Shown here in pieces: positions 1-39,795 of a stretch of 64,000 nucleotides of DNA. The first letter of the stretch is position 1, and every line of letters begins with the position of its first letter. A model generated the notes under the pieces. That model did no database searches and had not been told where the DNA came from. It saw only the letters and a list, made by a program, of their open reading frames with translations. Position numbers and translations under genes: made by a program. Origin of the DNA: a virus; the IMG/VR virus record IMGVR_UViG_3300025018_001404, positions 1 to 64,000 of that record; one strand, written 5' to 3'.

Positions 1-112
1 GCGGCATAGGCGGCAGCATAGGCGGCAGCATAGGCGGCAGCATAGGCGGCATCGGCAGCACAGGCAGCATAGGCGGCATAGGCGGCATCGGCAGCACAGG
101 CAGCATAGGCGG
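1..112. repeat. Coding tandem repeat (GGCGGCAGCATA and variants)
   Basis: Visible 9-12 bp units that encode YAAA/YAA/CAADAA on the minus strand. Confidence 0.9.
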
Positions 113-506
113 AACCCGATCTAGTCGCCTCGATAGCCTGGCGCGGTCTTTTATCTCTCGGATATTTGGATTCGAAAAAGTGCAAAACGTGCTCGGCACA
201 ATCCGCAGCGAAGAGTACCAGGGCGCGGGTATTGATCGCCTCGACCTTGCGAACCAACCGGACCTTTCTCACACAAACTTTATCATCGGAGTCCAGGGTT
301 TCCCCTTCAACCTCGACTTCATAAAGATTGTTGAGCATGAACGATCCAACAAGTTGGGACTCAGTCAAAACATGGTAACCGTTCTCGCACATGGCGAGCG
401 CGCCGACAATCTCAGGCGACCATTCCCCGAGTCCATAGTCAGTCCAGCGAAAGCTAGAGTAACCGCCAGTTCCATTGTCGTTCAGGTACTTGTAATACTT
501 AGTCAC
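1..506 (-). CDS. Early protein with an Imm5-like helical segment and an Ala-rich (YAAA) repeat tail; runs off the window edge
   Basis: Not in the ORF track. Manual translation from GTG at 506 (RBS GGAGG) gives MTKYYKYLNDNGTGGYSSFRW...ALVLFAADCAEHVLHFFESKYPRDKRPRQAIEATRSGSAYAACAADAAYAA. The FAADCAEHVL..FE..YP.DKRPR.AIEA segment resembles Imm5-like phage proteins (recalled). Confidence 0.7.
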   Translation of the reverse strand, partial: MTKYYKYLNDNGTGGYSSFRWTDYGLGEWSPEIVGALAMCENGYHVLTESQLVGSFMLNNLYEVEVEGETLDSDDKVCVRKVRLVRKVEAINTRALVLFAADCAEHVLHFFESKYPRDKRPRQAIEATRSGSAYAACAADAAYAAYAACAADAAYAAAYAAAYAAAYA

Positions 507-507
507 T

Positions 508-1254
508 TTAGCCTCCGTACCCTTTAAGAGCAACTGACTTCTCCAAGAAATCCAGGATCAAGTCTGTCTCATCACCTAGGGGAGTCCCAGCGCGGTGCTT
601 CCAATGTTCCCTTGCCTCTTCAAAGGTGAAATACCGGCAACCGGCAATCACACGCACTTTTTCATCACTACAGTGCAAGGCGACAAAAGAGAATCCATCG
701 GATCGCATTACCCCGTACACCTGAGCATTCCCGTACACCAGAGCATTCCCGTACACCCGAGCATTCCCGTACACCCGAGCATTCCCGTACACCCGAGCAT
801 TCCCGTACACCCGATCATTCCCGTACACCCGAGCATCCCCGTACACCAGAGCATCCCCGTACACCAGAGCATCCCCGTACACCTGAGCATCCCCGTACAC
901 CTGAGCATTCCCGGACACCTGAGCATTCCCGGACACCTGAGCATTCCCGGACACCTGAGCATTCCCGGACACCCGAGCATTCCCGTACACCCGAGCATCC
1001 CCGTACACCAGAGCATTCCCGTACACCAGAGCATTCCCGTACACCAGAGCATTCCCGTACACCAGAGCATTCCCGTACACCAGAGCATTCCCGTACACCC
1101 AGGAGGAGTCATGCTGATTAAGGTTGCTTTCCTTTTCAATCCAGCCGCCCAAGTCTCCAGTATTGACGTTGCCAAAAGCACACAAAGCGCGGATACGGTG
1201 CAAGGTTACGCCGTAGTAGTCTTTCTTCTCCATGGTCAATTCAAATTTAGTCAT
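508..1254 (-). CDS. Hexapeptide-repeat (VYGNAR-type) beta-helix phage protein
   Basis: N-terminus LHRIRAL..FGNV..GDLGGWIEKE.NL, about 21 V(Y/S)G(N/D)Ax repeats, C-terminus AGCRYFTFEEAREHW. Start placed at MTKF behind RBS GAGG. Confidence 0.85.
   Translation of the reverse strand: MTKFELTMEKKDYYGVTLHRIRALCAFGNVNTGDLGGWIEKESNLNQHDSSWVYGNALVYGNALVYGNALVYGNALVYGNALVYGDARVYGNARVSGNAQVSGNAQVSGNAQVSGNAQVYGDAQVYGDALVYGDALVYGDARVYGNDRVYGNARVYGNARVYGNARVYGNALVYGNAQVYGVMRSDGFSFVALHCSDEKVRVIAGCRYFTFEEAREHWKHRAGTPLGDETDLILDFLEKSVALKGYGG
711..1098. repeat. 18-bp coding tandem repeat, about 21 copies
   Basis: Unit CCCGTACACC(A/C/T)GAGCAT(T/C) repeated head to tail with no spacers. Confidence 0.95.
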
Positions 1255-1331
1255 TGTTAAACCTCGTTTCGGGTTAGACTTTCCATGTTTGCCAGAAACC
1301 GAATATGCAATCCCTGGCAAATATCGAAGTT

Positions 1332-1481
1332 CTAAACCTTGGTTGAAATCGTCGTGAACACAGTAGTCAGGTCAGTCCCGATTGCCTGCAATGAAACAAC
1401 CACGACAACGGCAATCATCACAACAATGAGTCCGTATTCAACCAGAGTCACGCCAGAGTTATTCTTAATCATTCGCAACAT
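1332..1481 (-). CDS. flp: Flp/Fap (Tad-type) pilin, 49 aa
   Basis: Not in the ORF track. Translation MLRMIKNNSG|VTLVEYGLIVVMIAVVVVVSLQAIGTDLTTVFTTISTKV has a basic leader, the G|xxxxEY Flp cleavage motif and a hydrophobic helix. RBS GGAAGG. Confidence 0.88.
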   Translation of the reverse strand: MLRMIKNNSGVTLVEYGLIVVMIAVVVVVSLQAIGTDLTTVFTTISTKV

Positions 1482-1533
1482 TTTGTATACCTTCCGGCAC
1501 AGTTTAAAACGGTTTACTCAGTTATAAGCACAC

Positions 1534-2034
1534 CTATTCTTTGCCTTGCACCTCCGTTATCAATTTAAGATTTGTGTGCGCCGATTCCTCCGCTTCCGAA
1601 AGCAGTTCATTAGCAACTTCCTGCAGGTACGAATTACCAGAATCCGGATAGTTGCACTCAACACCCCATAGGGCGCACTGGAAACGCGGTATCAACTGGA
1701 CCTTGTGGACTCCGTTGTCGCCATGCATCGGGCTAGGCACCGTGACGTAAGCCGTTACAGCAACGCCGCAGTAAAACCATTCTCCCTGATTCCAGGATTC
1801 CATCACGGCTTGCGCCTTGGCCATTTCGGACTCGTAGTTCTCAGGCAGCACGTAACCCGCCGAGTGCGGATCATTGGACGGCCAAAAACCCTCATCACGT
1901 TGTTCCGGAGTGTCGCCGCTATCGTCGCGGTAAATGGTGGCAACGTAGTGAATCCCGTTCCGCTCGACTTCAACGGAGTTACCTTCATAGGCGTGCGAGT
2001 CGAACGGCGGGAAAACTGTTTCGGTCTCAGACAT
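1534..2034 (-). CDS. Hypothetical early phage protein
   Basis: Acidic ORF with W.YCGV.V and LWGVE motifs typical of phage early hypotheticals; overlaps the upstream stop. Confidence 0.7.
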   Translation of the reverse strand: MSETETVFPPFDSHAYEGNSVEVERNGIHYVATIYRDDSGDTPEQRDEGFWPSNDPHSAGYVLPENYESEMAKAQAVMESWNQGEWFYCGVAVTAYVTVPSPMHGDNGVHKVQLIPRFQCALWGVECNYPDSGNSYLQEVANELLSEAEESAHTNLKLITEVQGKE

Positions 2035-2290
2035 TGGAGTGCCCCCATTTTGCGTTGCACTCATTCATGAAGGCGATTGCCTCCTCTTCGGTTTTGGCAG
2101 GCACGTGGCCCATACCAATCGTGACGCTTCCACGGGAGTCCTGCACTTCCCAGGTCCAGCCGCGAGTCACAATCTCCCAATCCGCTTTCTCGGATTCCTG
2201 GTACCAAGGGCAAGCGCCATAGATCGACGCCTTGCGCCCGGTAGGAATGTGGTTCCAAACTCGACTCGGGGTAACTCGTGTGATTCTCAT
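2027..2290 (-). CDS. Hypothetical early protein
   Basis: ORF with RBS AGGAG, downstream of the promoter at 2381-2409. Confidence 0.7.
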   Translation of the reverse strand: MRITRVTPSRVWNHIPTGRKASIYGACPWYQESEKADWEIVTRGWTWEVQDSRGSVTIGMGHVPAKTEEEAIAFMNECNAKWGHSNV

Positions 2291-2380
2291 TTTCGACTCC
2301 TGTTTTAGATTCCCCCGCTAGGGGTACTGCTTTAGCTTCCTGGCACTTGTGCCGTTCATCTGATTCGTTTCCTAGCAACC

Positions 2381-2409
2381 AAACTAGGATATGTTGCAGC
2401 CTATGTCAA
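2381..2409 (-). promoter_or_regulatory. sigma70-like early promoter
   Basis: TTGACA-17bp-TAGTTT on the minus strand, with TGCAA in the spacer. Confidence 0.75.
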
Positions 2410-2423
2410 TTAGGCTTTTGGAT

Positions 2424-2612
2424 TTACCCACACAGCGCATATACGCGCAAATCTTCATAGAGAGTATATGACGCCAGAAACTCTGACTCTGTGATTTCCT
2501 CGCGCTCAAATTGTGGGCAAGCGGCGTTGTGGCGTTTCAGAGCATGAGGAACAAGGCGCGCAGCTTCCCTTTGAGTCAGAGAGTCCCAATTGAGTGTGTC
2601 CAGGCTGGCCAT
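2424..2612 (-). CDS. Hypothetical early protein
   Basis: 62-aa ORF with RBS AGGGAG. Confidence 0.6.
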   Translation of the reverse strand: MASLDTLNWDSLTQREAARLVPHALKRHNAACPQFEREEITESEFLASYTLYEDLRVYALCG

Positions 2613-2758
2613 TAGCGTGACTCCCTGTTCATGCGCCTAGCAAGCGACTCCGCTGCCTTGCGACCATAACGAGTAGGGAAATACCAGCAATTAGACTCGT
2701 GGCATAGTACCGCCCAACGATCCTGGCCATATCCTCGATAGATTCCCGCGCTATACAT
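2612..2758 (-). CDS. Hypothetical 48-aa early protein
   Basis: Manual translation MYSAGIYRGYGQDRWAVLCHESNCWYFPTRYGRKAAESLARRMNRESR fills the gap exactly, with a TAATG overlap. Confidence 0.6.
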   Translation of the reverse strand: MYSAGIYRGYGQDRWAVLCHESNCWYFPTRYGRKAAESLARRMNRESR

Positions 2759-2760
2759 GA

Positions 2761-2952
2761 TCAAAACCCACAAGCTTTGAGGAAACGCGCTCGATCAAAG
2801 CGCGGGTCTCCCGCAGCGAAATGGTCTGCCATGTCCTGAGCGATATCTTCTAATGCGCCGCGATACTCCACCTTATCGAGTGAATAATAAGCGCATTCCT
2901 CCGAACGGTTTTTAACCATAGCGGCGAACGCTTCATAATCTTTCTTAGACAT
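2761..2952 (-). CDS. Conserved small phage early protein
   Basis: MSKKDYEAFA...FAAGDPRFDRARFLKACG pattern, common in phage early regions; RBS AAGGAG. Confidence 0.75.
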   Translation of the reverse strand: MSKKDYEAFAAMVKNRSEECAYYSLDKVEYRGALEDIAQDMADHFAAGDPRFDRARFLKACGF

Positions 2953-3022
2953 ACTCCGACTCCTTCACTCTAGTTGACTTTCCATCACTGCACGCTTTCC
3001 AAAGGCGCGCAGGTAAAGAGAG

Positions 3023-3307
3023 TCAATCTTCCGATTCGAATTCCTCGCGCCAATTGTCTGCAATTTCGTCCCAATTCACGGCGGGATATCCGCTATTGCT
3101 CTTCGCTCCATAGAGCGTTGCGCTATCAGTCGAGTCCATATCCGGAGTCCCGTCCGGGAACCAGTCGCGCACAAAGAAAGCAACGGCAACGGCGGTATCA
3201 GGCTTGGAACGCCATTTGGCGCGGTAGATAACCTCTTCATTGTCGCACCATAGTGCAACGTTCCAGGTCTCCCAATTCGTCCAGCCGTTATATGTGTTAT
3301 CAGTCAT
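3023..3307 (-). CDS. Conserved phage early protein (YNGWTNWETWNVALW family)
   Basis: Characteristic TYNGWTN.ETWNVALW..N.E start and VNWDEIA end. Confidence 0.8.
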   Translation of the reverse strand: MTDNTYNGWTNWETWNVALWCDNEEVIYRAKWRSKPDTAVAVAFFVRDWFPDGTPDMDSTDSATLYGAKSNSGYPAVNWDEIADNWREEFESED

Positions 3308-3569
3308 TCTCGTTGCTCCAGGGTTCAGCTACCTCGGAATAAATATCCCATAGGCGCGCAAGGTTTTTGTCCAGGTTATCGTTTGGGAAAACGTTGCAGA
3401 TCGACTCCCATTCCGACTCAAACTGCAACGCATCGTCACCTTGCACGAAAACCTGCAAACCATCGTGCTGCAGATCATTGCTAGGCTTTTGGTTCAGGGC
3501 ATAGGCGGTACCTTTGCCATAACTGACAAGGGAAAACCGATTCGTATTCTCCATGATGAAACGGCGCAT
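3300..3569 (-). CDS. Hypothetical early protein
   Basis: ORF with RBS GAGGAG. Confidence 0.65.
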   Translation of the reverse strand: MRRFIMENTNRFSLVSYGKGTAYALNQKPSNDLQHDGLQVFVQGDDALQFESEWESICNVFPNDNLDKNLARLWDIYSEVAEPWSNEND

Positions 3570-3644
3570 TAATCCGACTCCTCTTTGGTTGTGACTTTCC
3601 GTAGCTGCCTACAGGTTCCTAGCCTATAGGCAGGTAAGGGAGTC

Positions 3645-3986
3645 TCAATCGCGCCAGATACCGTTGGCAACTTGCGTTTCCTGCCAATGAACAATGGCTG
3701 CAGTCCTTGTAGCTGGTGAGATACCTAGCAGCTTGCACGCCACATTAAGCGCGATAACGCATTTACTCAGGTCCGCGCAGATATCACCTACCGCGCCATA
3801 ATAGGCGTCATCGTAAATCGAGAGGCAGGCATTCTTTTGATAGATCGCGCTTTTGCGTGCCCGGTCATCCCGAGTCATCCTGGCAAAGTCATCATGCGTT
3901 TCCGCCTGCTTTATCAGTTCCCTACGGAACGACTCAACCGTGTTTGGCGTACACACCGCGCCTATAATTTCCTGCACCGTATTCAT
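3645..3986 (-). CDS. Hypothetical early protein
   Basis: Start reassigned to MNTVQE behind RBS GAGGAG. Confidence 0.65.
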   Translation of the reverse strand: MNTVQEIIGAVCTPNTVESFRRELIKQAETHDDFARMTRDDRARKSAIYQKNACLSIYDDAYYGAVGDICADLSKCVIALNVACKLLGISPATRTAAIVHWQETQVANGIWRD

Positions 3987-4054
3987 CTCTCGACTCCTCT
4001 TTTCCGTTTCCAACGAATCGGTCTTTCCCGTTCGTTCGCCATTCTTAGCATCCC

Positions 4055-4871
4055 ATGACATAGGCTGCAATACCTATTTTCATATTCCACATATGAATGA
4101 CATACGCTGCAACTCAATACCGGATTTACGTTTTGTCCCTTATGTCATAGTTGCAGCCACTGTCACTTGGTACCTGAGCGAGTCCCAGGAATCGCGCCAA
4201 AATGGCTCATATAAAACAAGTGTCTTACATGACACACGCTGCATTTTTGTATCTGTGTCATGGTCTAAAACGCCAGATTCCTTATTGAAAACAACAAGGT
4301 GCGGCTATGTCATCCGGTTTTTCGTTACGATACCGTGATGGTGGTTATAACGGGTACGGAACGGTTACCAAAAGCGGTCAAATGCAGCCTGTGTCAATAT
4401 TCCCGTATTTAACCGTTAATTATAACACATTGATTTCATTGAGCTATGACATAGGCTGCGGCGGGCATTGGGAACAGGCAAAATGACATAGCGGCAACGT
4501 ATTGAATCTAAACGACATTTTTGGTACAAAAACCCCTTCATACTTTTAGTATGTATAGCAGCCTGCGGTGCTGCTTACATCCTACTGAGTATGGTTATGC
4601 GAGTGAAAGACAGACACACCTAGAGACCCTGACACGTTGGCGATAACATATATCCTATATGTATCTTTAAGCCTCGGATCGAGTCCGCAGCCTTGCGTTC
4701 CGAATCTCTGGCCAGACTCGTCTACCTCTCGATTTGTTGTGAATTTCCCTACACGCCATTTCCCGACATTTTCGAGAATGCCAGACAATGCCTGCAGCGT
4801 TGACTCCCGTTCATCCTGGCGCGCAACAATCATAAACCCTGCCTGATTTATATCATTGCAGCCTATGTCAT
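4055..4871. promoter_or_regulatory. Non-coding control region at the strand switch, with clustered WTGACA-N5-TGC motifs and an IHF-consensus site
   Basis: Motif copies at 4055, 4097, 4151, 4229, 4382, 4446 and 4856 in both orientations. AATCAAtgtgTTA on the minus strand at 4423-4435 fits WATCARnnnnTTR. Confidence 0.7.
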
Positions 4872-4916
4872 GCCGTGTTAAGAATCGGCCAGAGACAATG
4901 ACAAGTGAGTCGAACA

Positions 4917-5273
4917 ATGAACGCCAGATATCTTGCATCCCGCACTCGCCTAGCATGGCGTCTAGCTCGTCATGGCGCTAACAGGTTCGGCGGTACCGCC
5001 CCGGATTACTTCATCGAGTTCATGCGTGAAGTGTGGGCCGACTATGACGGCGTGCTGGCCTACCTGAGCGGAACGCGCCCTAGCGGGATCATTCCAGCCC
5101 TTTTGGTACAGGTTGTTATTGCAGCCGTGCTTATCGCCATTGGCTACATGTTCCCTGGCCATGACTTCCATATCGTCTTTTTCGGAATGTTTGCCCAGAT
5201 GGCCGCCGCGCTGCCTTTCATCAATCGCGCTTTGAATGAGGAGTCGAACAATGAATACATTCTTGTTGAGTGA
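4917..5273 (+). CDS. Hypothetical membrane protein
   Basis: Two C-terminal hydrophobic segments; GAGTCGAAC-A-ATG start. Confidence 0.65.
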   Translation: MNARYLASRTRLAWRLARHGANRFGGTAPDYFIEFMREVWADYDGVLAYLSGTRPSGIIPALLVQVVIAAVLIAIGYMFPGHDFHIVFFGMFAQMAAALPFINRALNEESNNEYILVE

Positions 5274-5508
5274 AGAGACTGATCAGCGGGTTACGCGGTC
5301 ATATACCGCCGCTGCCGTCCTGCTACTGGCCACAGGTGGCCTAGTTGGTTTGCTGCCTACCGTTGCAGCCCTTATGGGACTCGGTGGCTTGGTAGCCCTT
5401 GGCTGCCTTGGGCTGACCCTGATATCTATCGCGGGCGCATTCACTGTTCGCGCCATCTCATACGAGGAGTCTGCTAACCTGCCTTTGTACCGACTGACAG
5501 GCTGCTGA
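5251..5508 (+). CDS. Hypothetical membrane protein
   Basis: Two hydrophobic helices; RBS GAGGAG. Confidence 0.65.
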   Translation: MNTFLLSEETDQRVTRSYTAAAVLLLATGGLVGLLPTVAALMGLGGLVALGCLGLTLISIAGAFTVRAISYEESANLPLYRLTGC

Positions 5509-5601
5509 TATGACAGCCTGGGCAGTCTGGATCACCTCTAGCCTGCTATTGCTGGCCTTGTGCTGGCTTGTAGACAAAGGTTCGGACTCGTAAACTACCT
5601 T

Positions 5602-5630
5602 AGCCCGCCTAGCGCGGGTTTCTCTTTGTT
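5602..5630 (+). terminator. Probable intrinsic terminator
   Basis: AGCCCGC-loop-GCGGGTT followed by TCTCTTTGTT. Confidence 0.45.
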
Positions 5631-6355
5631 ACCAATTCACACATTGATTGTGTTGTTTCCATTTATTACCCTTGCCTGCAGCGTTGTCATTGATTGCGTA
5701 TTAATGTTGCGCGCCAAGGCAGCCAGTGCAGGCGGGCTTATAGACGGCCCGCGTCGAGTCATTTTATTGCGTATTAATGTTGCTCGCCTGTTCGGATAGG
5801 GCGCTTTGTGCGCGTCCAGGTCCGGCGCGTGCTGGCCTATTCCTGATAAGGAATTCGGACCCCGGACCCCCAAATAAAGAAGGGGTGGGGCGGCCTTTAT
5901 CCACCGCTCTAGAGCCGTCTACGTTTGTCCGAAATATGTATACACTTTTCGGACTTTCACGCATCTCACATGCGCCATTTTCTGGTTTTCAGGAAAATCC
6001 CCGGAGAGTTATGACACAGACTGCAATGTCCCCTATTGCCTTCTCTGTCAACCATCCCTCCCGTCTCAGGGGTGATATCCATTTGCACAGGTCGCCACCT
6101 GTAAACCGCAGACTTCCGCCGCAAACAGGTGATTTCCTATGCTCCCGGTCACCACCCCTTGTTTCCTCTGTGTCAAAGGTCTCAGCCGTCCATTATTGGC
6201 GCATAAGTGCCTTTCAGGGCCTGTTAATGACGTTTGCATCCTATGTCATTTGTTAAAATTTCCGGGTTTTCCCGTCCTGCACATTCCCATATCACCCTTA
6301 CGACCTTTCACCAGGAAGCCTATGCTAATGGCATGTTCCCCACGGGGTGATAGCA

Positions 6356-6532
6356 ATGACCACTTTTGTCCTGATGATGTTCCTGATCCTGCCTGGTGAC
6401 CGTATCGAGGCTTTCACCCTGACCCAGGGCATGAACGAGAAGGCCTGCAGGATCATGGAAGAGAGCATGAATACCCGGATCGCTACGGCCAAGTACGCTC
6501 TGGTCAAATGCGTGCCCCAGACCACCCTGTAA
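6356..6532 (+). CDS. Small hypothetical protein with a hydrophobic N-terminus
   Basis: FVLMMFLIL followed by C...C, a pattern of small phage proteins. Confidence 0.55.
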   Translation: MTTFVLMMFLILPGDRIEAFTLTQGMNEKACRIMEESMNTRIATAKYALVKCVPQTTL

Positions 6533-6545
6533 TCGAAGGAATTTC

Positions 6546-6812
6546 ATGTCACACGCCATGTCCCTGATCAGCTTCGAGACCACCCTTGTTCGCAACAGCA
6601 ACCCTGTCAGTGCCGTATGCTCGGTCGCGGGTTGGGTCGTATCTGAGACCAGGGATGACCTGGTAGTGGTGTCCTGCGTCAGTCAAACAGCAGGAAAAGA
6701 GGATACAGTCTATGTATTTCTTGGCGAAAGCATCACGATTCCGAAGAAACAAGTGCTTTCGATGTGGACTCTGAAGGTGGATGAGCGTAAGAGTGGCCTA
6801 GTAATGAATTGA
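6546..6812 (+). CDS. Hypothetical phage protein
   Basis: RBS GAAGGA; C.VAGWVV.ET.D.VVV...ITIPK pattern. Confidence 0.65.
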   Translation: MSHAMSLISFETTLVRNSNPVSAVCSVAGWVVSETRDDLVVVSCVSQTAGKEDTVYVFLGESITIPKKQVLSMWTLKVDERKSGLVMN

Positions 6813-6857
6813 AGGGTGAGGGTAGAGTAGGACGTTCATCGTCTTGACTCCCCACCT

Positions 6858-6892
6858 TTGCTCGGCTCCAGTGATGGAGTCGGGCACTTTTT
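6858..6892 (+). terminator. Probable intrinsic terminator
   Basis: TGCTCGGCTCCA-GTGA-TGGAGTCGGGCA followed by a T run. Confidence 0.6.
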
Positions 6893-6917
6893 CGACCTGA
6901 TATTAAGGATTTCGACC

Positions 6918-7331
6918 ATGTCTGGACTTGAAGAGCGTGCGAATCAGTACATTGATCACTCGACTCGGACCCCCAAAACCGGGGATATTTACGAAAACGA
7001 AGATTGCCTGGTGTATTTCCTGAACAGTGAAGAACTGCTGAAAATCGACGGTGATCCGTGGACTACGTGGTCCGAGAAGGCAAAAAGCCTGTTCAAGGTC
7101 ACTTTTCTGAGCCTGTGCGAGGCTGGAATCGAGATTCTGGACGAAAATACCTGCCCGATGCCGCGATCCGAATTCCAAACTATGGCGTTTAACGCTGCGA
7201 TGATCGCCGCCGAAGCGTTGACACATATCGAGGTGGATACTCCGTCTCCCAAGTTGTGCGAGTGCCCGCAGGGGTTACGTCATAGACGATGGCCATGGTA
7301 TTTCTTGTCTATTCAGAACGAATGGGTTTGA
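6918..7331 (+). CDS. Hypothetical protein
   Basis: ORF from MSGLEER with RBS AAGGA. Confidence 0.6.
   Translation: MSGLEERANQYIDHSTRTPKTGDIYENEDCLVYFLNSEELLKIDGDPWTTWSEKAKSLFKVTFLSLCEAGIEILDENTCPMPRSEFQTMAFNAAMIAAEALTHIEVDTPSPKLCECPQGLRHRRWPWYFLSIQNEWV
7271..7304 (+). promoter_or_regulatory. Putative late promoter, copy 1
   Basis: GGGGTTAC-N20-TATTTC. Confidence 0.6.
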
Positions 7332-7334
7332 GCC

Positions 7335-7610
7335 ATGGCTGTTGATACCACCATTATTCCAGATATGAACTTCGGTTCAGGTCCGTCTTCCGCCATTAAT
7401 GGTGCCTACGACCTGGTTCCTTTTGCCGACGGCCCTATCGCCGGTAAACAGATCAGGGGCGTCTACTGCGGCACTGCCGGGACCGTAAGTATGGTGACGC
7501 AGACAGGCCGCGTACTTGTCAACTTCCCTGCTCTTGCCGGTTTTACAACCGCATTGCTCAAGGCTATCACTGCTGTAGGGACGGCTACCGGCGTCTACTT
7601 CGTCTACTAA
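7335..7610 (+). CDS. Head spike base protein (RcGTA rcc01079/GhsA-like)
   Basis: 91 aa; IRGVYCGTAGTVSMVT...AG...AITAVGTATG matches the recalled spike-base pattern R.LYVG.AG.V.V...GT.AT. Confidence 0.7.
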   Translation: MAVDTTIIPDMNFGSGPSSAINGAYDLVPFADGPIAGKQIRGVYCGTAGTVSMVTQTGRVLVNFPALAGFTTALLKAITAVGTATGVYFVY

Positions 7611-7621
7611 AGGATCAGTAG

Positions 7622-9139
7622 GTGCTTGGACTCTCCCTAGCTTTGCCACATGAGGCCTTGCTGACAGATATCGCTCAAATCAGCGCCATTGCTGCGGCGA
7701 TGTATGACTACCGTGAATCTATCGCCTACCAGACTGCTCTCGGCACCACGCCCTCAGGCACGGGTGACCCCGTAGGCTTTCTCCAGGACCTTAGCGGCAA
7801 CGCTCCTGCTGTCATGGGCACAGTCGGCTCCAGGCCATTGATGCAGGCGGGTGGGATCACCTTTGACGGCACCGATGACAGGCTCAACGGCTTCAATCGC
7901 TCCACAATCATGGCGTCGTCTCGTTACACCGTTCCTGATGTGTCCGACAGCGACACAGGTAAGGGTTACACCTGCACCGGCACGACTATCGACACCAGTG
8001 ACGACACATTGTGGGATTGTAACGACGGTCGGTCAAACTCCGCTGACGTGACACACCGGGGATCGGTGATCAACAAGACGAGGGTCGGGGGTTTCATACG
8101 TGAGATCGACCTTGCGGCGCTTTACCCGTCGTCAACGAGTTTTCAAGGGGTGCAGTTTGATCCCGACACTGACGGCGGCAACCTCCCTACCGGCAGTTTG
8201 TGGGTAGCCAGCAAGGGTGAAAACCTTATGCGGCGTATCTCCAAGGTGGACGGCTCGACCATTTCATCATTTGCCAGTACAGAGCCAAACGGCGTCGGCA
8301 TTGACACGGTGACCGGCTACGTCATCGTTACCCGAGATAGCGGCGACGTGGCGGTTTACACCCGCGCCGGTGTCCAGGTTGGCAGCACATTCAACCTGGG
8401 TGAGAGCTTCGACCAGATCGACTACGATAGCGCCACGGGCCTGCTTTACTACACCCGTGGGTCCGCGACGGATGGCAACTATATCGGCGTGTTCCACCTT
8501 CCAAGCCGCCAATTCGTAACCCGCCTGATGACGCCTGAAGCCGACCAGATCGAGGGCATTGCTGTCGATGGAACGACTGTATACGTCAACAACGACGGTT
8601 ATTTTCATGACGGCGCTGCCGATCTCAACGAGACGCTGGTTTACGAACTGGACTCTGCACCTGTCTATACGCCTCAAACAAAGGTGACGCTGTTCGCCAA
8701 GTTCAACTGTGCCGCGCCATCGGGAACACGGGCAGTCGTAAGCGCCAATAGCGGCGTATCCAATGCCGGTGCTGGTATCTGGCCTATTGGTTCCAGTTCC
8801 ACGTCCGTGAGGGTGTTCGTCAACTCCAATGCAGGCACTACGGAACGGGACAGTGTAGATTTTACTGGTCTTCCGGACATGACGATTTCGCGGGCTATCG
8901 TGCTTGAGATCGATACCGTAGCCAAGACCCTGGACCTTGAGGTTGATGGAGTTGCCTATGGTGGTACCAAGAGCCTGACCAACGTCGCCGGGGGTATTTC
9001 AACTGGTCAAATAGTCCTGTCGGCTGCCAAGGACAACACCAACGAACTGGCGAGCACGATACAAGTTGGTGGGGCGTTCAACCGGTTCCTGACGGCACCT
9101 GAGAAAGTTGCGCTCAATCGGTATCTGGCTGCTGCCTAG
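7622..9139 (+). CDS. Head fibre/spike protein with a beta-propeller-like middle and a lectin-like C-terminus
   Basis: MLGLSLAL N-terminal anchor directly after the spike base, as in RcGTA rcc01080. GDPVGFLQDLSGN...RP...FDGTDD...NRFLTAPEK..LNRYL fibre motifs and EGIAVD-type blades. Confidence 0.65.
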   Translation: MLGLSLALPHEALLTDIAQISAIAAAMYDYRESIAYQTALGTTPSGTGDPVGFLQDLSGNAPAVMGTVGSRPLMQAGGITFDGTDDRLNGFNRSTIMASSRYTVPDVSDSDTGKGYTCTGTTIDTSDDTLWDCNDGRSNSADVTHRGSVINKTRVGGFIREIDLAALYPSSTSFQGVQFDPDTDGGNLPTGSLWVASKGENLMRRISKVDGSTISSFASTEPNGVGIDTVTGYVIVTRDSGDVAVYTRAGVQVGSTFNLGESFDQIDYDSATGLLYYTRGSATDGNYIGVFHLPSRQFVTRLMTPEADQIEGIAVDGTTVYVNNDGYFHDGAADLNETLVYELDSAPVYTPQTKVTLFAKFNCAAPSGTRAVVSANSGVSNAGAGIWPIGSSSTSVRVFVNSNAGTTERDSVDFTGLPDMTISRAIVLEIDTVAKTLDLEVDGVAYGGTKSLTNVAGGISTGQIVLSAAKDNTNELASTIQVGGAFNRFLTAPEKVALNRYLAAA

Positions 9140-9645: not shown

Positions 9646-11142
9646 ATGTCCGTAGGAACTGGTATTAATCAGGTACTGGCACCTGTACGCGAAGTCACCA
9701 GCCTTGCCCCGACCGGCCCGGACAGCCTTGAGGCCGCGCTGACCGCCGATACGATGGGCGCTGGCGCTATCATTGATTTCGACGTGGCGGGCAACAACAA
9801 CGGCATCGGCCTGCCTGATATGGTCGTTACCCAGCCGGGTATTCAGATCCGGGGCGAGACTGCACCGGGTGATGGGTATAACGTCGTGGGCCGCGCCATC
9901 CGCCTGAAGGCCAGCGGCGGTGTGTTGAGCGGGCTGCGGTTTGCGGCGGGCGATGTGCCGGGTATTCCGAACCCTGAGAACCGGGACTGCGCGGGGCTTG
10001 AGGGCGAGGCGCAGCCGATCAGGGACATTCTGATCCGGGGAAACACGTTCGCCTATTCCCTCGACGGCCTGTTTGATTTCTGGTCCACCCAAATCGAGCG
10101 GGTGACGGTCGAGAACAACATCTTTGCCGAGCCGCTGGACGCCAGCATTCACCCCTCGGGGAGCCACGCAACGGCGCTTCTGATCGGCAAGGGCGGCACG
10201 GACATTCTCATCAAGGGTAACCTGTTCGCTCATGGCCGCTATCGCCACCCTGCCATTCGAGGCCCGGCGAACGTCGCGCTGGTGAACAACCTCTACTACA
10301 ACTGCGCTGACCAGCACTGGCAGCTGTACGGCGCTGACACCGGGGCGGCGGGCGGAACCATCCTGCTCGCCATTGTGGGTAACCACGCCATCGTCGGGCG
10401 CAACATGCCGTACTGGCGCGCAGCGGGGCATTACGAGCCGATCCATTCCGGCATGTCGGCGTTCCCCGACTCCCGCGTCTACATGGACGACAACATCACG
10501 ACCTGGCACGCCGATTTCGTGAACGGCAATGCCGGTCTGGGGATCACGGCACGGTCGCAGTACCTGACCACCAATGCGTTCCCGACCAATACGGCGGGTA
10601 TGCAGGCGCTGGGCTACGCGCTGATCTCAGGGTCGAACCCGGTGGACATGACCGGCCTGTCACCCATGGCGGCTTCTGCCGTGCAAGCCTATGTGCTGGC
10701 CAATGCGGGCCCGAGAGATTCAAGCGGGGCGCTGCGTGACAGCATCCTCGAAGCCCGCATCCGGGCCGAAGTATCGGACGGGCGGATTGGCACACTCAAA
10801 AACACGATCCCGGCAGCGGAGGCTGCCTATTTCGGTTTCCCTAGCCCGCCGCCCCTGACATACGGGGACATCGACGACACGGCGATATTGAACGCCATCG
10901 GCGATGAGGCGGAAACCCGGTACGCGGACAACGAGATCACGGACACAACCTTGCTGCCGAGCGTGACCCGGACGGCGATTCTGGCGCTTCTTGACGCGCT
11001 GAACGTCGGAGAGGGCCAGCCGCTTGTGACCGTGGAGGCTGTGCGGGCTGCGGCACTGTCGATCGGTGCGGAATCCGAGGCGCTGGTTGAGAGCATCGAC
11101 CGGCAGCGCGCCAACAACACCAAGCCGTACTGGCAGGGATGA
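9646..11142 (+). CDS. Pectate-lyase-like beta-helix protein (candidate depolymerase)
   Basis: V.SL..TGP.SL.AAL, I.GETAPGDG, FAYSLDG, NLFAH..YRHP, VNNLYYN and VLANAG motifs of PL1-type lyases. Confidence 0.8.
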   Translation: MSVGTGINQVLAPVREVTSLAPTGPDSLEAALTADTMGAGAIIDFDVAGNNNGIGLPDMVVTQPGIQIRGETAPGDGYNVVGRAIRLKASGGVLSGLRFAAGDVPGIPNPENRDCAGLEGEAQPIRDILIRGNTFAYSLDGLFDFWSTQIERVTVENNIFAEPLDASIHPSGSHATALLIGKGGTDILIKGNLFAHGRYRHPAIRGPANVALVNNLYYNCADQHWQLYGADTGAAGGTILLAIVGNHAIVGRNMPYWRAAGHYEPIHSGMSAFPDSRVYMDDNITTWHADFVNGNAGLGITARSQYLTTNAFPTNTAGMQALGYALISGSNPVDMTGLSPMAASAVQAYVLANAGPRDSSGALRDSILEARIRAEVSDGRIGTLKNTIPAAEAAYFGFPSPPPLTYGDIDDTAILNAIGDEAETRYADNEITDTTLLPSVTRTAILALLDALNVGEGQPLVTVEAVRAAALSIGAESEALVESIDRQRANNTKPYWQG

Positions 11143-17918: not shown

Positions 17919-17995
17919 CAGCGAGTAGGGCAGTCTGGTAGCCCGTCAGGCTCATAATCTGAAGGTCGTTGGTTCAAATCCAACCTCGCTCACCA
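17919..17995 (+). tRNA. tRNA-Met(CAT), initiator-like
   Basis: Full cloverleaf with 1:72 mismatch, CTCATAA loop, GGTTCAAATCC T-arm and encoded CCA. Confidence 0.92.
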
Positions 17996-18004
17996 AGGAA
18001 GAAT

Positions 18005-18132
18005 GCCCACTTAGCCCAACGGTAGAGGCAGCGGTGTTAAGCTCCGTCAAGTGTCCGTTCGAATCGGACAGTGGTAGAGCAGTCGCCTTGTAAGCGTCAG
18101 GTCGCAGGTTCAAGTCCTTGCATTCGGCACCA
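18005..18132 (+). pseudogene. Fused tRNA-Leu(TAA)-like / tRNA-Thr(TGT) remnant
   Basis: The first tRNA lacks its 3' end. The second (CTTGTAA loop, ...ATTCGGCACCA) lacks its 5' end. They join at a shared CAGTGG. Confidence 0.7.
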
Positions 18133-39077: not shown

Positions 39078-39302
39078 ATGGATTTCACTTTTCTCGGTCT
39101 GACGACCGCCATGAACATGCTTTGGTTGCTTGTTGGCTTTGTTGGCGTGATCTTCGGGCTTCGCTACTTCGACAAGTCTCTCGGCATCAGTTTCAAATCT
39201 CAGGTGTGGGATGTCATTGCTACGAACTCTATGGCTCTCGCTGTTTATCATGGTCTCAGGCTCATTGCTGTCGCCATGCTTCTCAGCGCCGCTATTAAAT
39301 AA
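39078..39302 (+). CDS. Holin
   Basis: 74 aa with two TM helices, overlapping the endolysin start. Confidence 0.7.
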   Translation: MDFTFLGLTTAMNMLWLLVGFVGVIFGLRYFDKSLGISFKSQVWDVIATNSMALAVYHGLRLIAVAMLLSAAIK

Positions 39303-39795
39303 CCACCAATACGACGAGTCTATCCAGTCCTCCGTAAAGCGGTATTGGGCCGGTTATCCCGACTGGAAGTGGTGGAAGGCGCAACTTTACCAGGAGAGCC
39401 TGCTGGAGCCTACAGCCCGTTCCCACGTCGGTGCTGAGGGCATCGCTCAGTTCATGCCTGCCACCTGGCGTCAAGTATCGAAGCAGATGGGCTATCGGAG
39501 CATATCACCGCGTGATGCAAAGTATGCCATCGCAGCCGGTGCGTTCTACATGGCGCAATTGAAGCGTAGCTGGAAAGCAAAGCGACCCGAGATGGATCGC
39601 CATTTCCTCGCAGCGGCTTCGTACAATGCTGGGATGGGGAATATCCTGCACGCTCAGGACAGATGCGGCAATAAATCTCTCTACAAGGAAATTATTGCTT
39701 GCCTTCCGCAGGTAACTGGCAGACACTCTCGTGAAACGATTACATACGTCGAACGTATTCAAAAATGGTACCACATTCTGGAGACTGAACGATGA
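39211..39795 (+). CDS. Endolysin, SLT lytic transglycosylase with an N-terminal signal-like segment
   Basis: QES, A.S.VGA.GIAQFMPATW, ASYNAG.G, ETITYV.RI. Confidence 0.93.
   Translation: MSLLRTLWLSLFIMVSGSLLSPCFSAPLLNNHQYDESIQSSVKRYWAGYPDWKWWKAQLYQESLLEPTARSHVGAEGIAQFMPATWRQVSKQMGYRSISPRDAKYAIAAGAFYMAQLKRSWKAKRPEMDRHFLAAASYNAGMGNILHAQDRCGNKSLYKEIIACLPQVTGRHSRETITYVERIQKWYHILETER

Follow-up and report, generated by a model that had tools for sequence, protein, structure and literature searches.

Tad (Flp) pili are widespread organelles of adhesion and surface sensing, and they are the receptors for several phages. Mimicry of a pilin by a phage has, to our knowledge, so far been demonstrated only for type IVa pili, with the protein P-FimU. 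In the report on this factor from F10-like/JBD68 prophages of Pseudomonas (PMC12952977; Sztanko et al., Cell Rep 2026), P-FimU is described as being built into the type IVa pilus, where it blocks phages that attach at the tip. PilA-like genes are described there as well, in prophages of Xylella and in virulent phages of Pseudomonas, with one PilA-like family reduced to the N-terminal 60 residues, and the authors propose incorporation or a block of assembly as a superinfection-exclusion device. Neither Flp nor Tad occurs in its main text. Here we analyze a gene, flp, that encodes a Tad-type pilin on a phage genome. It lies at positions 1332 to 1481, on the minus strand, of a 64,000-nucleotide (nt) stretch of viral DNA (the window), which comprises bases 1-64000 of the 77,643-bp IMG/VR virus record IMGVR_UViG_3300025018_001404.

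The likeness to P-FimU and the phage PilA proteins of PMC12952977 is that of a lone pilus-subunit homologue on a phage genome without assembly machinery, and the PilA-like mimics, too, are carried by virulent phages and are in some cases cut to the N-terminal helix. The viral nature of the genome is clear in the present case from its terminase, portal, major capsid and tape measure genes and its CheckV rating of 100% complete. The difference lies in the pilus class and the host. The mimics of PMC12952977 belong to type IVa pili (FimU being a minor pilin and PilA a globular one) of gammaproteobacterial hosts, whereas the phage Flp is by its sequence a Tad (type IVc) major pilin consisting of a bare 39-residue helix, with a probable alphaproteobacterial host. 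That prophages can carry flp has been published before, as annotation. An Flp pilin of Vibrio harveyi phi345-like prophages has been read as an adhesion virulence factor (PMC12482185), and another is tabled among the accessory genes of Sinorhizobium meliloti phiLM21-like prophages (PMC12429752), neither listing being accompanied by a functional test. Those genes likewise lie inside tailed-phage genomes, but their carriers are temperate prophages, whereas the present phage is integrase-less and probably replication-autonomous. Beyond these two listings, full-text searches of the literature on phage-encoded Flp pilins and on Flp pili of viral contigs yielded a single review, which was unrelated. 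What is new is the presence of flp in a virulent-type phage, the breadth of its independent acquisitions, the pattern of selection and the connection with the literature on PilA signaling.

Among cellular pilins, the appropriate comparison is with PilA of Caulobacter crescentus, the chromosomally encoded Cpa/Tad major pilin of 59 amino acids (aa) with a 14-residue leader, which is the receptor for phiCbK and phiCb5. It shares with the phage Flp the Pfam family, the G/xTxxEY processing site (the slash marks the cut), a hydrophobic core helix and a short exposed C-terminus. The phage protein differs in having 49 aa and a 10-residue leader, in its surface-exposed C-terminal third, and in coming from a genome with no Tad-machinery gene. 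The Tad pilin N-terminus is reported to lie buried within the core of the filament, with the C-terminus exposed, and two natural substitutions at exposed PilA residues are described as affecting hydrogen bonding to the maturation protein of phiCb5 (PMC11067988). Moreover, when the first 17 residues of mature PilA ("CIP") were added to Caulobacter, susceptibility to phiCbK was reported to fall by 77% and attachment by 71%, and the peptide to trigger PleC-PleD signaling and the G1-S transition (PMC7196804). The precedents of P-FimU (PMC12952977) and CIP (PMC7196804) lend credibility to the ideas that the host peptidase might process a phage pilin, that it might enter or jam pili, titrate the peptidase or act on cell-cycle signaling.

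The features of the flp gene are as follows.

1332 to 1481, minus strand: flp, a 49-aa prepilin of the Flp/Fap family, identified from the open reading frame (ORF), Pfam, HMMER relatives and solved Tad pilins
1452 to 1481, minus strand: leader, codons 1-10, MLRMIKNNSG
1335 to 1451, minus strand: mature part, a 39-aa pilin
1332 to 1334, minus strand: stop codon
1490 to 1495, minus strand: GGAAGG, a Shine-Dalgarno-like motif read from the sequence, 8 nt 5' of the flp ATG

The first-pass annotation, made from the DNA letters alone, had proposed a 49-aa ORF with a ribosome-binding site, an intact prepilin leader and a G/xxxxEY motif at this position. The translation is exactly as it was quoted there, the GGAAGG motif supplies the ribosome-binding site, and the ATG at 1481 is the earliest possible start downstream of the preceding in-frame stop. 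The comparison with PF04964 that the annotation had suggested gave 56.2 bits for Flp_Fap (cut-off 32.2, E 3e-15), with residues 5-48 of the phage Flp aligned to profile positions 2-45 of 46. Its assignment to the Caulobacter PilA type was likewise borne out by a match to the NA1000 PilA structure 8U1K (E 1.9e-6), in which phage residues 12-46 align with PilA 2-36. The protein also aligns to 8U2B, the bNY30a pilin; the mature PilA of 8U1K and 8U2B is 45 aa long. PMC11067988 confirms the identities of both entries and describes the PilA fold. Within the assembly/signaling helix of PilA (residues 2-17), 11 of the 16 aligned positions are identical in phage residues 12-27.

Processing of Flp pilins requires a glycine at -1, a glutamate at +5 and a tyrosine at +6, as reported for Aggregatibacter Flp1 and TadV. 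In the phage Flp the corresponding site reads G10/VTLVEY16 and is followed by the hydrophobic helix GLIVVMIAVVVVV. An alignment of 19 rows, made up of the phage Flp and 18 of its best database relatives, has the -1 glycine G10, T12, Y16, L18, A24 and G35 as invariant positions, while E15 is kept in 17 of the 19. A HMMER search of 1.84 billion representative proteins found 1,828 relatives (E<=1e-3). Leaving aside the protein itself, the top matches are 37-64% identical, and the phage Flp therefore forms its own cluster at 50% identity. Its mature length of 39 residues is the commonest (40 of 135, median 41) among the 135 relatives with a single motif. Although the GC content of flp is 44.7% compared with 54.0% for the genome, its third-position GC is 56%, and much of the difference is owed to amino-acid composition. 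Score, processing site with helix, and a small non-globular mature subunit all place the protein in the Flp/Fap family. The TadV/CpaA peptidase and Tad assembly genes that accompany such pilins elsewhere are not found in the phage genome, but such genes are a trait of the canonical locus, not one that defines the protein family, and membership stands. Judged from its sequence, then, the flp product is a genuine, intact Flp (Tad/type IVc) prepilin of the Caulobacter PilA kind and, as a protein, an ordinary member of the Flp/Fap family.

The absence of other tad genes, which the first-pass annotation had remarked on for the window, extends to the whole genome. A six-frame scan of all 77,643 bp gave a single Flp_Fap match, flp itself (54.7 bits), and no match at E<=1 for Peptidase_A24, T2SSE, TadE or T2SSF; Pfam scans of the called ORFs also revealed no Tad-machinery genes. 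With one Flp_Fap match and no prepilin peptidase, ATPase, platform or pseudopilin family in six frames, flp is a true orphan. Because the phage supplies the subunit only, any effect on pili must run via the machinery of the host. The gene is also firmly part of the phage. In a separately made assembly (run X1, which may be the source sample), a 1,179-nt contig covers 1071-2249 with 0 differences and a depth of 67 as against about 62 in the flanks, and in run X4, from another sample, a 151-nt contig covers 1389-1539, again with 0 differences. Since these contigs are identical to the record and the X1 depth is level, flp is continuous with phage DNA and did not arise as an assembly chimera. The metagenomes in which the phage occurs are from aquifers (groundwater).

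The record is that of a siphophage and is rated 100% complete by CheckV. Its final ~125 bases duplicate positions 17-141, inside a tandem-repeat gene, which means that the assembly is self-closing and that the repeat number is somewhat ambiguous. On the plus strand, 7.6-41 kb hold a siphovirus structural module with large terminase, portal, tail tube and tape measure genes, a major capsid protein 72-75% identical to that of Pseudomonas YuA/Ab18-type phages, and a distal tail module like that of gene transfer agents. The minus strand carries replication and nucleotide genes (DNA polymerase A, SNF2 helicase, ribonucleotide reductase, ThyA, dCMP deaminase and MazG), and a primase-polymerase is encoded on the plus strand. 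Beyond the window, 63-77.6 kb contain an N6/N4 DNA methylase, a GapR-like protein and a PrkA-DUF444-SpoVR triad. Among GenBank phages, no relative of the DNA polymerase exceeds 36% identity, and the left 12 kb of the genome have no meaningful DNA match; by these sequence comparisons the phage is new. A six-frame search of the whole genome found no match to tyrosine or serine recombinases. Together with the phage's own DNA polymerase A, ribonucleotide reductase, ThyA, dCMP deaminase and primase, this indicates that the phage is probably virulent, integrase-less and replication-autonomous, and a role for flp in lysogenic conversion is therefore unlikely. The following genes outside the flp region are considered further below.

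9646 to 11142: pectate-lyase-like protein (phrog_27797, E 7.5e-7)
39211 to 39795: SLT-domain, lysis-like gene, distant from flp
Genome 66341 to 66661, minus strand: GapR-like nucleoid-protein gene (PF10073, E 6.6e-35)

Side features of the genome include adjacent tRNA-Met(cat) and tRNA-Leu(taa) genes at 17919-18078, within the head-gene region. The triad, at genome 68722-73630 on the minus strand, consists of PrkA (654 aa), DUF444/YeaH (432 aa) and SpoVR/YcgB (502 aa) and constitutes a complete bacterial stress module of the yeaG-yeaH-ycgB type (Pfam E 1e-130 to 1e-160). Only 17 GenBank phage records contain a PrkA homologue, and most of these belong to jumbo and Thermus phages.

It had been suggested that the host be predicted from the best bacterial Flp, but the best one in 401 alphaproteobacterial genomes is only 55% identical, and an assignment at the level of class came instead from GapR and PrkA. 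Among 14 control genomes, only that of Caulobacter has a match to the GapR family. Its homologues are found in 104 GenBank phage records, mostly from alphaproteobacterial hosts, which makes the gene a helpful marker of the host; Rhizobium phages (29) are the most numerous, followed by those of Ruegeria (11), Caulobacter (11), Brevundimonas (7) and Agrobacterium (6). Bacterial PrkA proteins share 59-64% identity with that of the phage, and by record title about 73 of its best 80 loci are alphaproteobacterial, the others being gammaproteobacterial (three), actinobacterial (one) or unclassified (three). Given the distribution of the GapR family and an alphaproteobacteria-like PrkA, the host is probably an alphaproteobacterium.

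A phage-borne Flp is less of a novelty than the first-pass annotation had assumed. The tblastn survey for orphan flp genes that it called for found none in 50,697 GenBank phage records, whether this Flp or a prophage-type Flp was the query, although a distant Flp could escape such a search; blastn with the flp DNA also gave no match in these records. As a positive control, tblastn with the same Flp query found 12 plasmid records. A census of IMG/VR was more productive. One degenerate pattern derived from the alignment was run against 2.9 million contigs and returned 70 matches, of which 33, in 30 distinct loci, were confirmed by tblastn. With a single pattern in use, the count of loci is a lower bound. 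All 30 exceed the Flp_Fap cut-off, at 51-80 bits, and among the 269 ORFs of >=85 aa within 4 kb on either side of the 30 genes not one carries a domain of the Tad machinery (E<=1e-5). At 17 of the loci, genes for terminase, portal or phage lysozyme lie within the same distance, and some of the other 13 may be host flanks of prophages. At many loci flp is found directly upstream of the small terminase gene. Sorting the loci by the flanking proteins they have in common gives 19 groups, each an unrelated context, and the flanks of the present phage (G000) have nothing in common with any of them except a weak match to the large terminase. In PHROGs, none of six viral Flp queries reached a family better than E 0.04. 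The gene thus escapes phage annotation resources. Counting the prophage Flp proteins listed in the two papers cited above, phage-borne flp is less unusual than it appears, but poorly recognized.

The largest group (L091-L102) consists of 10 prophage-like loci with 7 distinct flp alleles. In this lineage dN/dS is ~0.08 for the leader and core helix and ~0.33 for the exposed C-terminal half, values that are to be read with dS near saturation and a gapless alignment assumed for the last codons. The two figures indicate that flp genes of the prophage lineage are maintained while their surface-exposed part changes fast. The genes of this family have a NusG-like or GcrA-like regulator on one side and the small terminase gene on the other, and their products have a near-invariant N-terminal half and a C-terminal tail that varies in sequence and length, Gly-rich extensions included. 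Three further viral Flp proteins (L110 6001-6147, L112 6001-6135 and L113 6001-6141) have Ala in place of the usual Gly at -1. Their contigs differ in GC content (46%, 55% and 64%) and have no flanking genes in common, and the Flp core is near-identical in all three (AVTAIEYALIAALIAVVII.AVT.LGHGVS.TF). They may represent a phage-specific lineage with altered processing. Two loci of the census have unusual neighbors: a portal protein fused to an Acb1 anti-CBASS domain (L100 1341-3167; PF23474, E 7.5e-31) and a large terminase split by an intein with a LAGLIDADG domain (L109 1384-4062).

Tentatively, and as the most plausible of several accounts, we propose that the phage Flp acts by pilin mimicry at the Tad pili of the host and thereby excludes pilus-dependent phages. 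The 49-aa prepilin would insert in the host inner membrane during infection, a host TadV/CpaA-type prepilin peptidase would cut the 10-residue leader after G10, and the freed 39-residue helix would enter the host pilin pool. There it might co-polymerize into Tad pili and alter their exposed C-terminal surface, or it might overload or poison assembly so that pili are lost. Either way, phages that bind the pilus, be they competitors or progeny of the same phage, would fail to adsorb productively to the infected cell. The outcome would be superinfection exclusion, and the phage Flp would be the Tad-pilus counterpart of prophage P-FimU and the phage PilA-like proteins. We infer when the gene is expressed, that the leader is cleaved, that the helix joins the host pilins and what this does to pili and other phages. 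The observations these steps build on are the family of the protein, the integrity of its motif, its orphan status, its carriage by a phage and its recurrence. Specifically, the protein keeps all family-conserved determinants of cleavage and assembly, it is encoded by an orphan gene of a kind that recurs among viruses, and a strong hairpin (described below) follows the gene.

Several observations weigh against this proposal. Scattered extra copies of flp are common in bacterial chromosomes, with up to 13 matches per genome, and orphan status alone is therefore not special. The alphaproteobacterial genomes G201 and G134, for example, have 6 and 13 scattered Flp matches, respectively. In G201, several distant matches have equal identity and a near-equal score, which suggests that the copies ride on repeated or mobile elements. 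An Flp match was found in 187 of the 401 sampled alphaproteobacterial genomes, the best being 46-55% identical (the tally includes the unpublished genome G245, on which no conclusion depends), and the best bacterial Flp in the 1.84-billion-protein library is at most 64% identical. The 10-residue leader is short (<=10 in 3 of the 135 relatives, for which database start calls are unreliable). A search of IMG/VR with the single Flp sequence found no near relatives of the phage in which conservation within its lineage could be seen. Finally, the pectate-lyase-like protein suggests that the phage may use a polysaccharide receptor, and the case for self-exclusion would then be weaker, though not that for exclusion of competitors.

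The foremost of the alternatives, which we regard as unlikely, is that the phage hijacks a signal. The phage pilin would swell the inner-membrane pool and activate a PleC-PleD-type pathway, raising cyclic di-GMP (c-di-GMP). A G1-arrested swarmer cell would then pass into S phase, suiting phage DNA replication, and pili would retract as a side effect. Put in terms of the known peptide, and as an equally unlikely proposition, flp would give the phage its own version of the "cell-cycle initiating pilin" signal: produced early in infection, the pilin would flood the inner membrane, switch the PleC-PleD-type sensor and so bring about both S-phase entry and a retraction of Tad pili by which pilus-dependent phages are shut out. 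The account draws on the description in PMC7196804 of the first 17 mature PilA residues as sufficient to bind TM1 of PleC and raise c-di-GMP, and of the same stretch as shortening G1 and lowering pilus function. The identity of the phage Flp with PilA at 11 of 16 aligned positions falls within this signaling stretch. Such similarity is, however, non-discriminating, because every Flp pilin keeps these residues of the N-terminal helix for the sake of assembly. The GapR homologue of the phage, from a family seen only in Caulobacter among the control genomes, and the probable alphaproteobacterial host are consistent with signal hijacking, as are the GcrA-like genes in some flp-bearing prophages. 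On the other hand, PilA-PleC signaling has been shown in Caulobacter only, and viral flp genes also occur on contigs of 41-46% GC. If the phage protein were indeed a copy of CIP, the orphan flp genes of unrelated phages would amount to a general viral tool against surface sensing and c-di-GMP.

It is less probable still that the phage contributes an extra functional pilin, which would be built into working Tad pili and increase or alter the adhesion and biofilm formation of infected cells. Every assembly determinant is intact in the phage Flp, as this account would have it, and the Flp of V. harveyi phi345-like prophages has been so interpreted (PMC12482185); the Flp tabled as an accessory gene for the phiLM21-like prophages of S. 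meliloti (PMC12429752) can be set beside it. An integrase-less phage with a full replication module, however, probably kills its host in one cycle and would gain little from adhesion. We consider it improbable that flp encodes a pilus-independent membrane peptide, that is, a co-opted single-pass inner-membrane protein, which might block DNA injection by other phages, tune the timing of lysis or serve as a decoy for the prepilin peptidase. The hydrophobic helix of 39-49 aa would suit such a role, and the Ala at -1 in L110, L112 and L113 could mean that cleavage is altered or absent in some phage copies. Yet G-1, E+5 and Y+6, which a generic membrane peptide would not need, are all conserved in the present protein, and flp lies far from lysis-like genes such as the SLT-domain gene. 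Least probable of all, and in our view very doubtful, is that flp is a hitchhiker taken from a host with no role for the phage: no close phage relative was found that would show conservation, and the gene is identical in the covered parts of all four metagenome runs (X1-X4), so that there is no variation from which to gauge selection, but the reading frame, ribosome-binding site and motif are intact, no sampled bacterial Flp exceeds 64% identity, so that the capture of flp was not recent, flp is under purifying selection in another phage lineage, and it is carried independently in 19 contexts.

The surroundings of flp bear on how the proposed mimic would be expressed. Its immediate neighbors are listed here.

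1534 to 2064, minus strand: upstream neighbor, a 176-aa protein with no assigned function, ending 52 nt before the flp start
1288 to 1321, minus strand: RNA hairpin with a 14-bp stem and a 6-nt loop, starting 11 nt past the flp stop
508 to 1254, minus strand: downstream neighbor, a YdcK-type beta-solenoid repeat protein (Pfam B_solenoid_ydck, 8.2e-32)

The predicted fold of 1255-1335 on the minus strand has a free energy of -26.8 kcal/mol, as compared with -14.4 ± 2.9 for shuffled sequences (z -4.25), of which 0 of 200 were as stable. A scan for consensus terminators called nothing after flp, the hairpin at 1288-1321 included. As no U-tract follows it, this hairpin is not a terminator of the canonical kind. 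It could stabilize the 3' end of the flp mRNA or partly stop transcription or read-through, and either role would raise the expression of flp above that of the downstream genes. The upstream neighbor has no Pfam or PHROG family match; its five distant relatives in IMG/VR (L002-L006) are 31-49% identical, and none has an adjacent flp. The YdcK-type protein probably starts at the ATG at 1254 behind a GAGG motif, not at the TTG at 1320, and PHROG alignments of the 270-aa ORF begin at residues 22-24.

The flp gene is about the tenth in a leftward minus-strand block of small ORFs without known families that begins near 4956. This block diverges from the plus-strand genes leading to the structural module and runs leftward over the ends of the record into the PrkA, methylase and replication genes. 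The placement of flp in an early operon, as first proposed, is plausible given this layout, but the timing is read from gene order alone, and promoter-like sites give no help, being no more frequent in positions 1-8000 (6) than in shuffles (8.4 ± 3.3). A candidate promoter for flp itself, TTGATA-16-AAGAAT on the minus strand at 1563-1536, is present but was rejected because such sites are not enriched. Two degenerate CtrA-like boxes that the first-pass annotation had taken as a weak hint are in the sequence as written, but with two mismatches each they are at chance level. The window has 118 sites matching TTAA-N7-TTAA with <=2 mismatches, as against 134 ± 12.7 in shuffles, and the boxes therefore carry no information.

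Downstream of flp are two repeat-rich genes (window 1-1320 and genome end 77400-77643). The YdcK-type beta-solenoid protein is built of YGNA(L/Q/R)V repeats, and the second gene, which spans the record ends, encodes an Imm5-like/DUF7666 protein with AYAA-type tandem repeats. At positions 634-1134 the summed contig depth is ~7-fold higher, and run X1 has several variants at 751-787, a pattern to be expected of repeats that are collapsed or that other genomes share. At the DNA level the repeats are 90% identical to the end of Aeromonas phage PS.

Taken with its relatives on other viral contigs, the flp gene of this phage is less singular than the first-pass annotation implied. Its product is only 49 aa long, and existing read-outs in Caulobacter (cleavage, piliation, plating of phiCbK and phiCb5, c-di-GMP and the G1-S transition) make its proposed activities readily testable. 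Exploitation by phages of pilin-PleC surface sensing is a directly testable hypothesis in the same organism. More broadly, the intact Flp of a virulent-type phage and at least 30 further orphan copies in 19 unrelated contexts suggest that pilin mimicry extends to Tad pili and that it is common.

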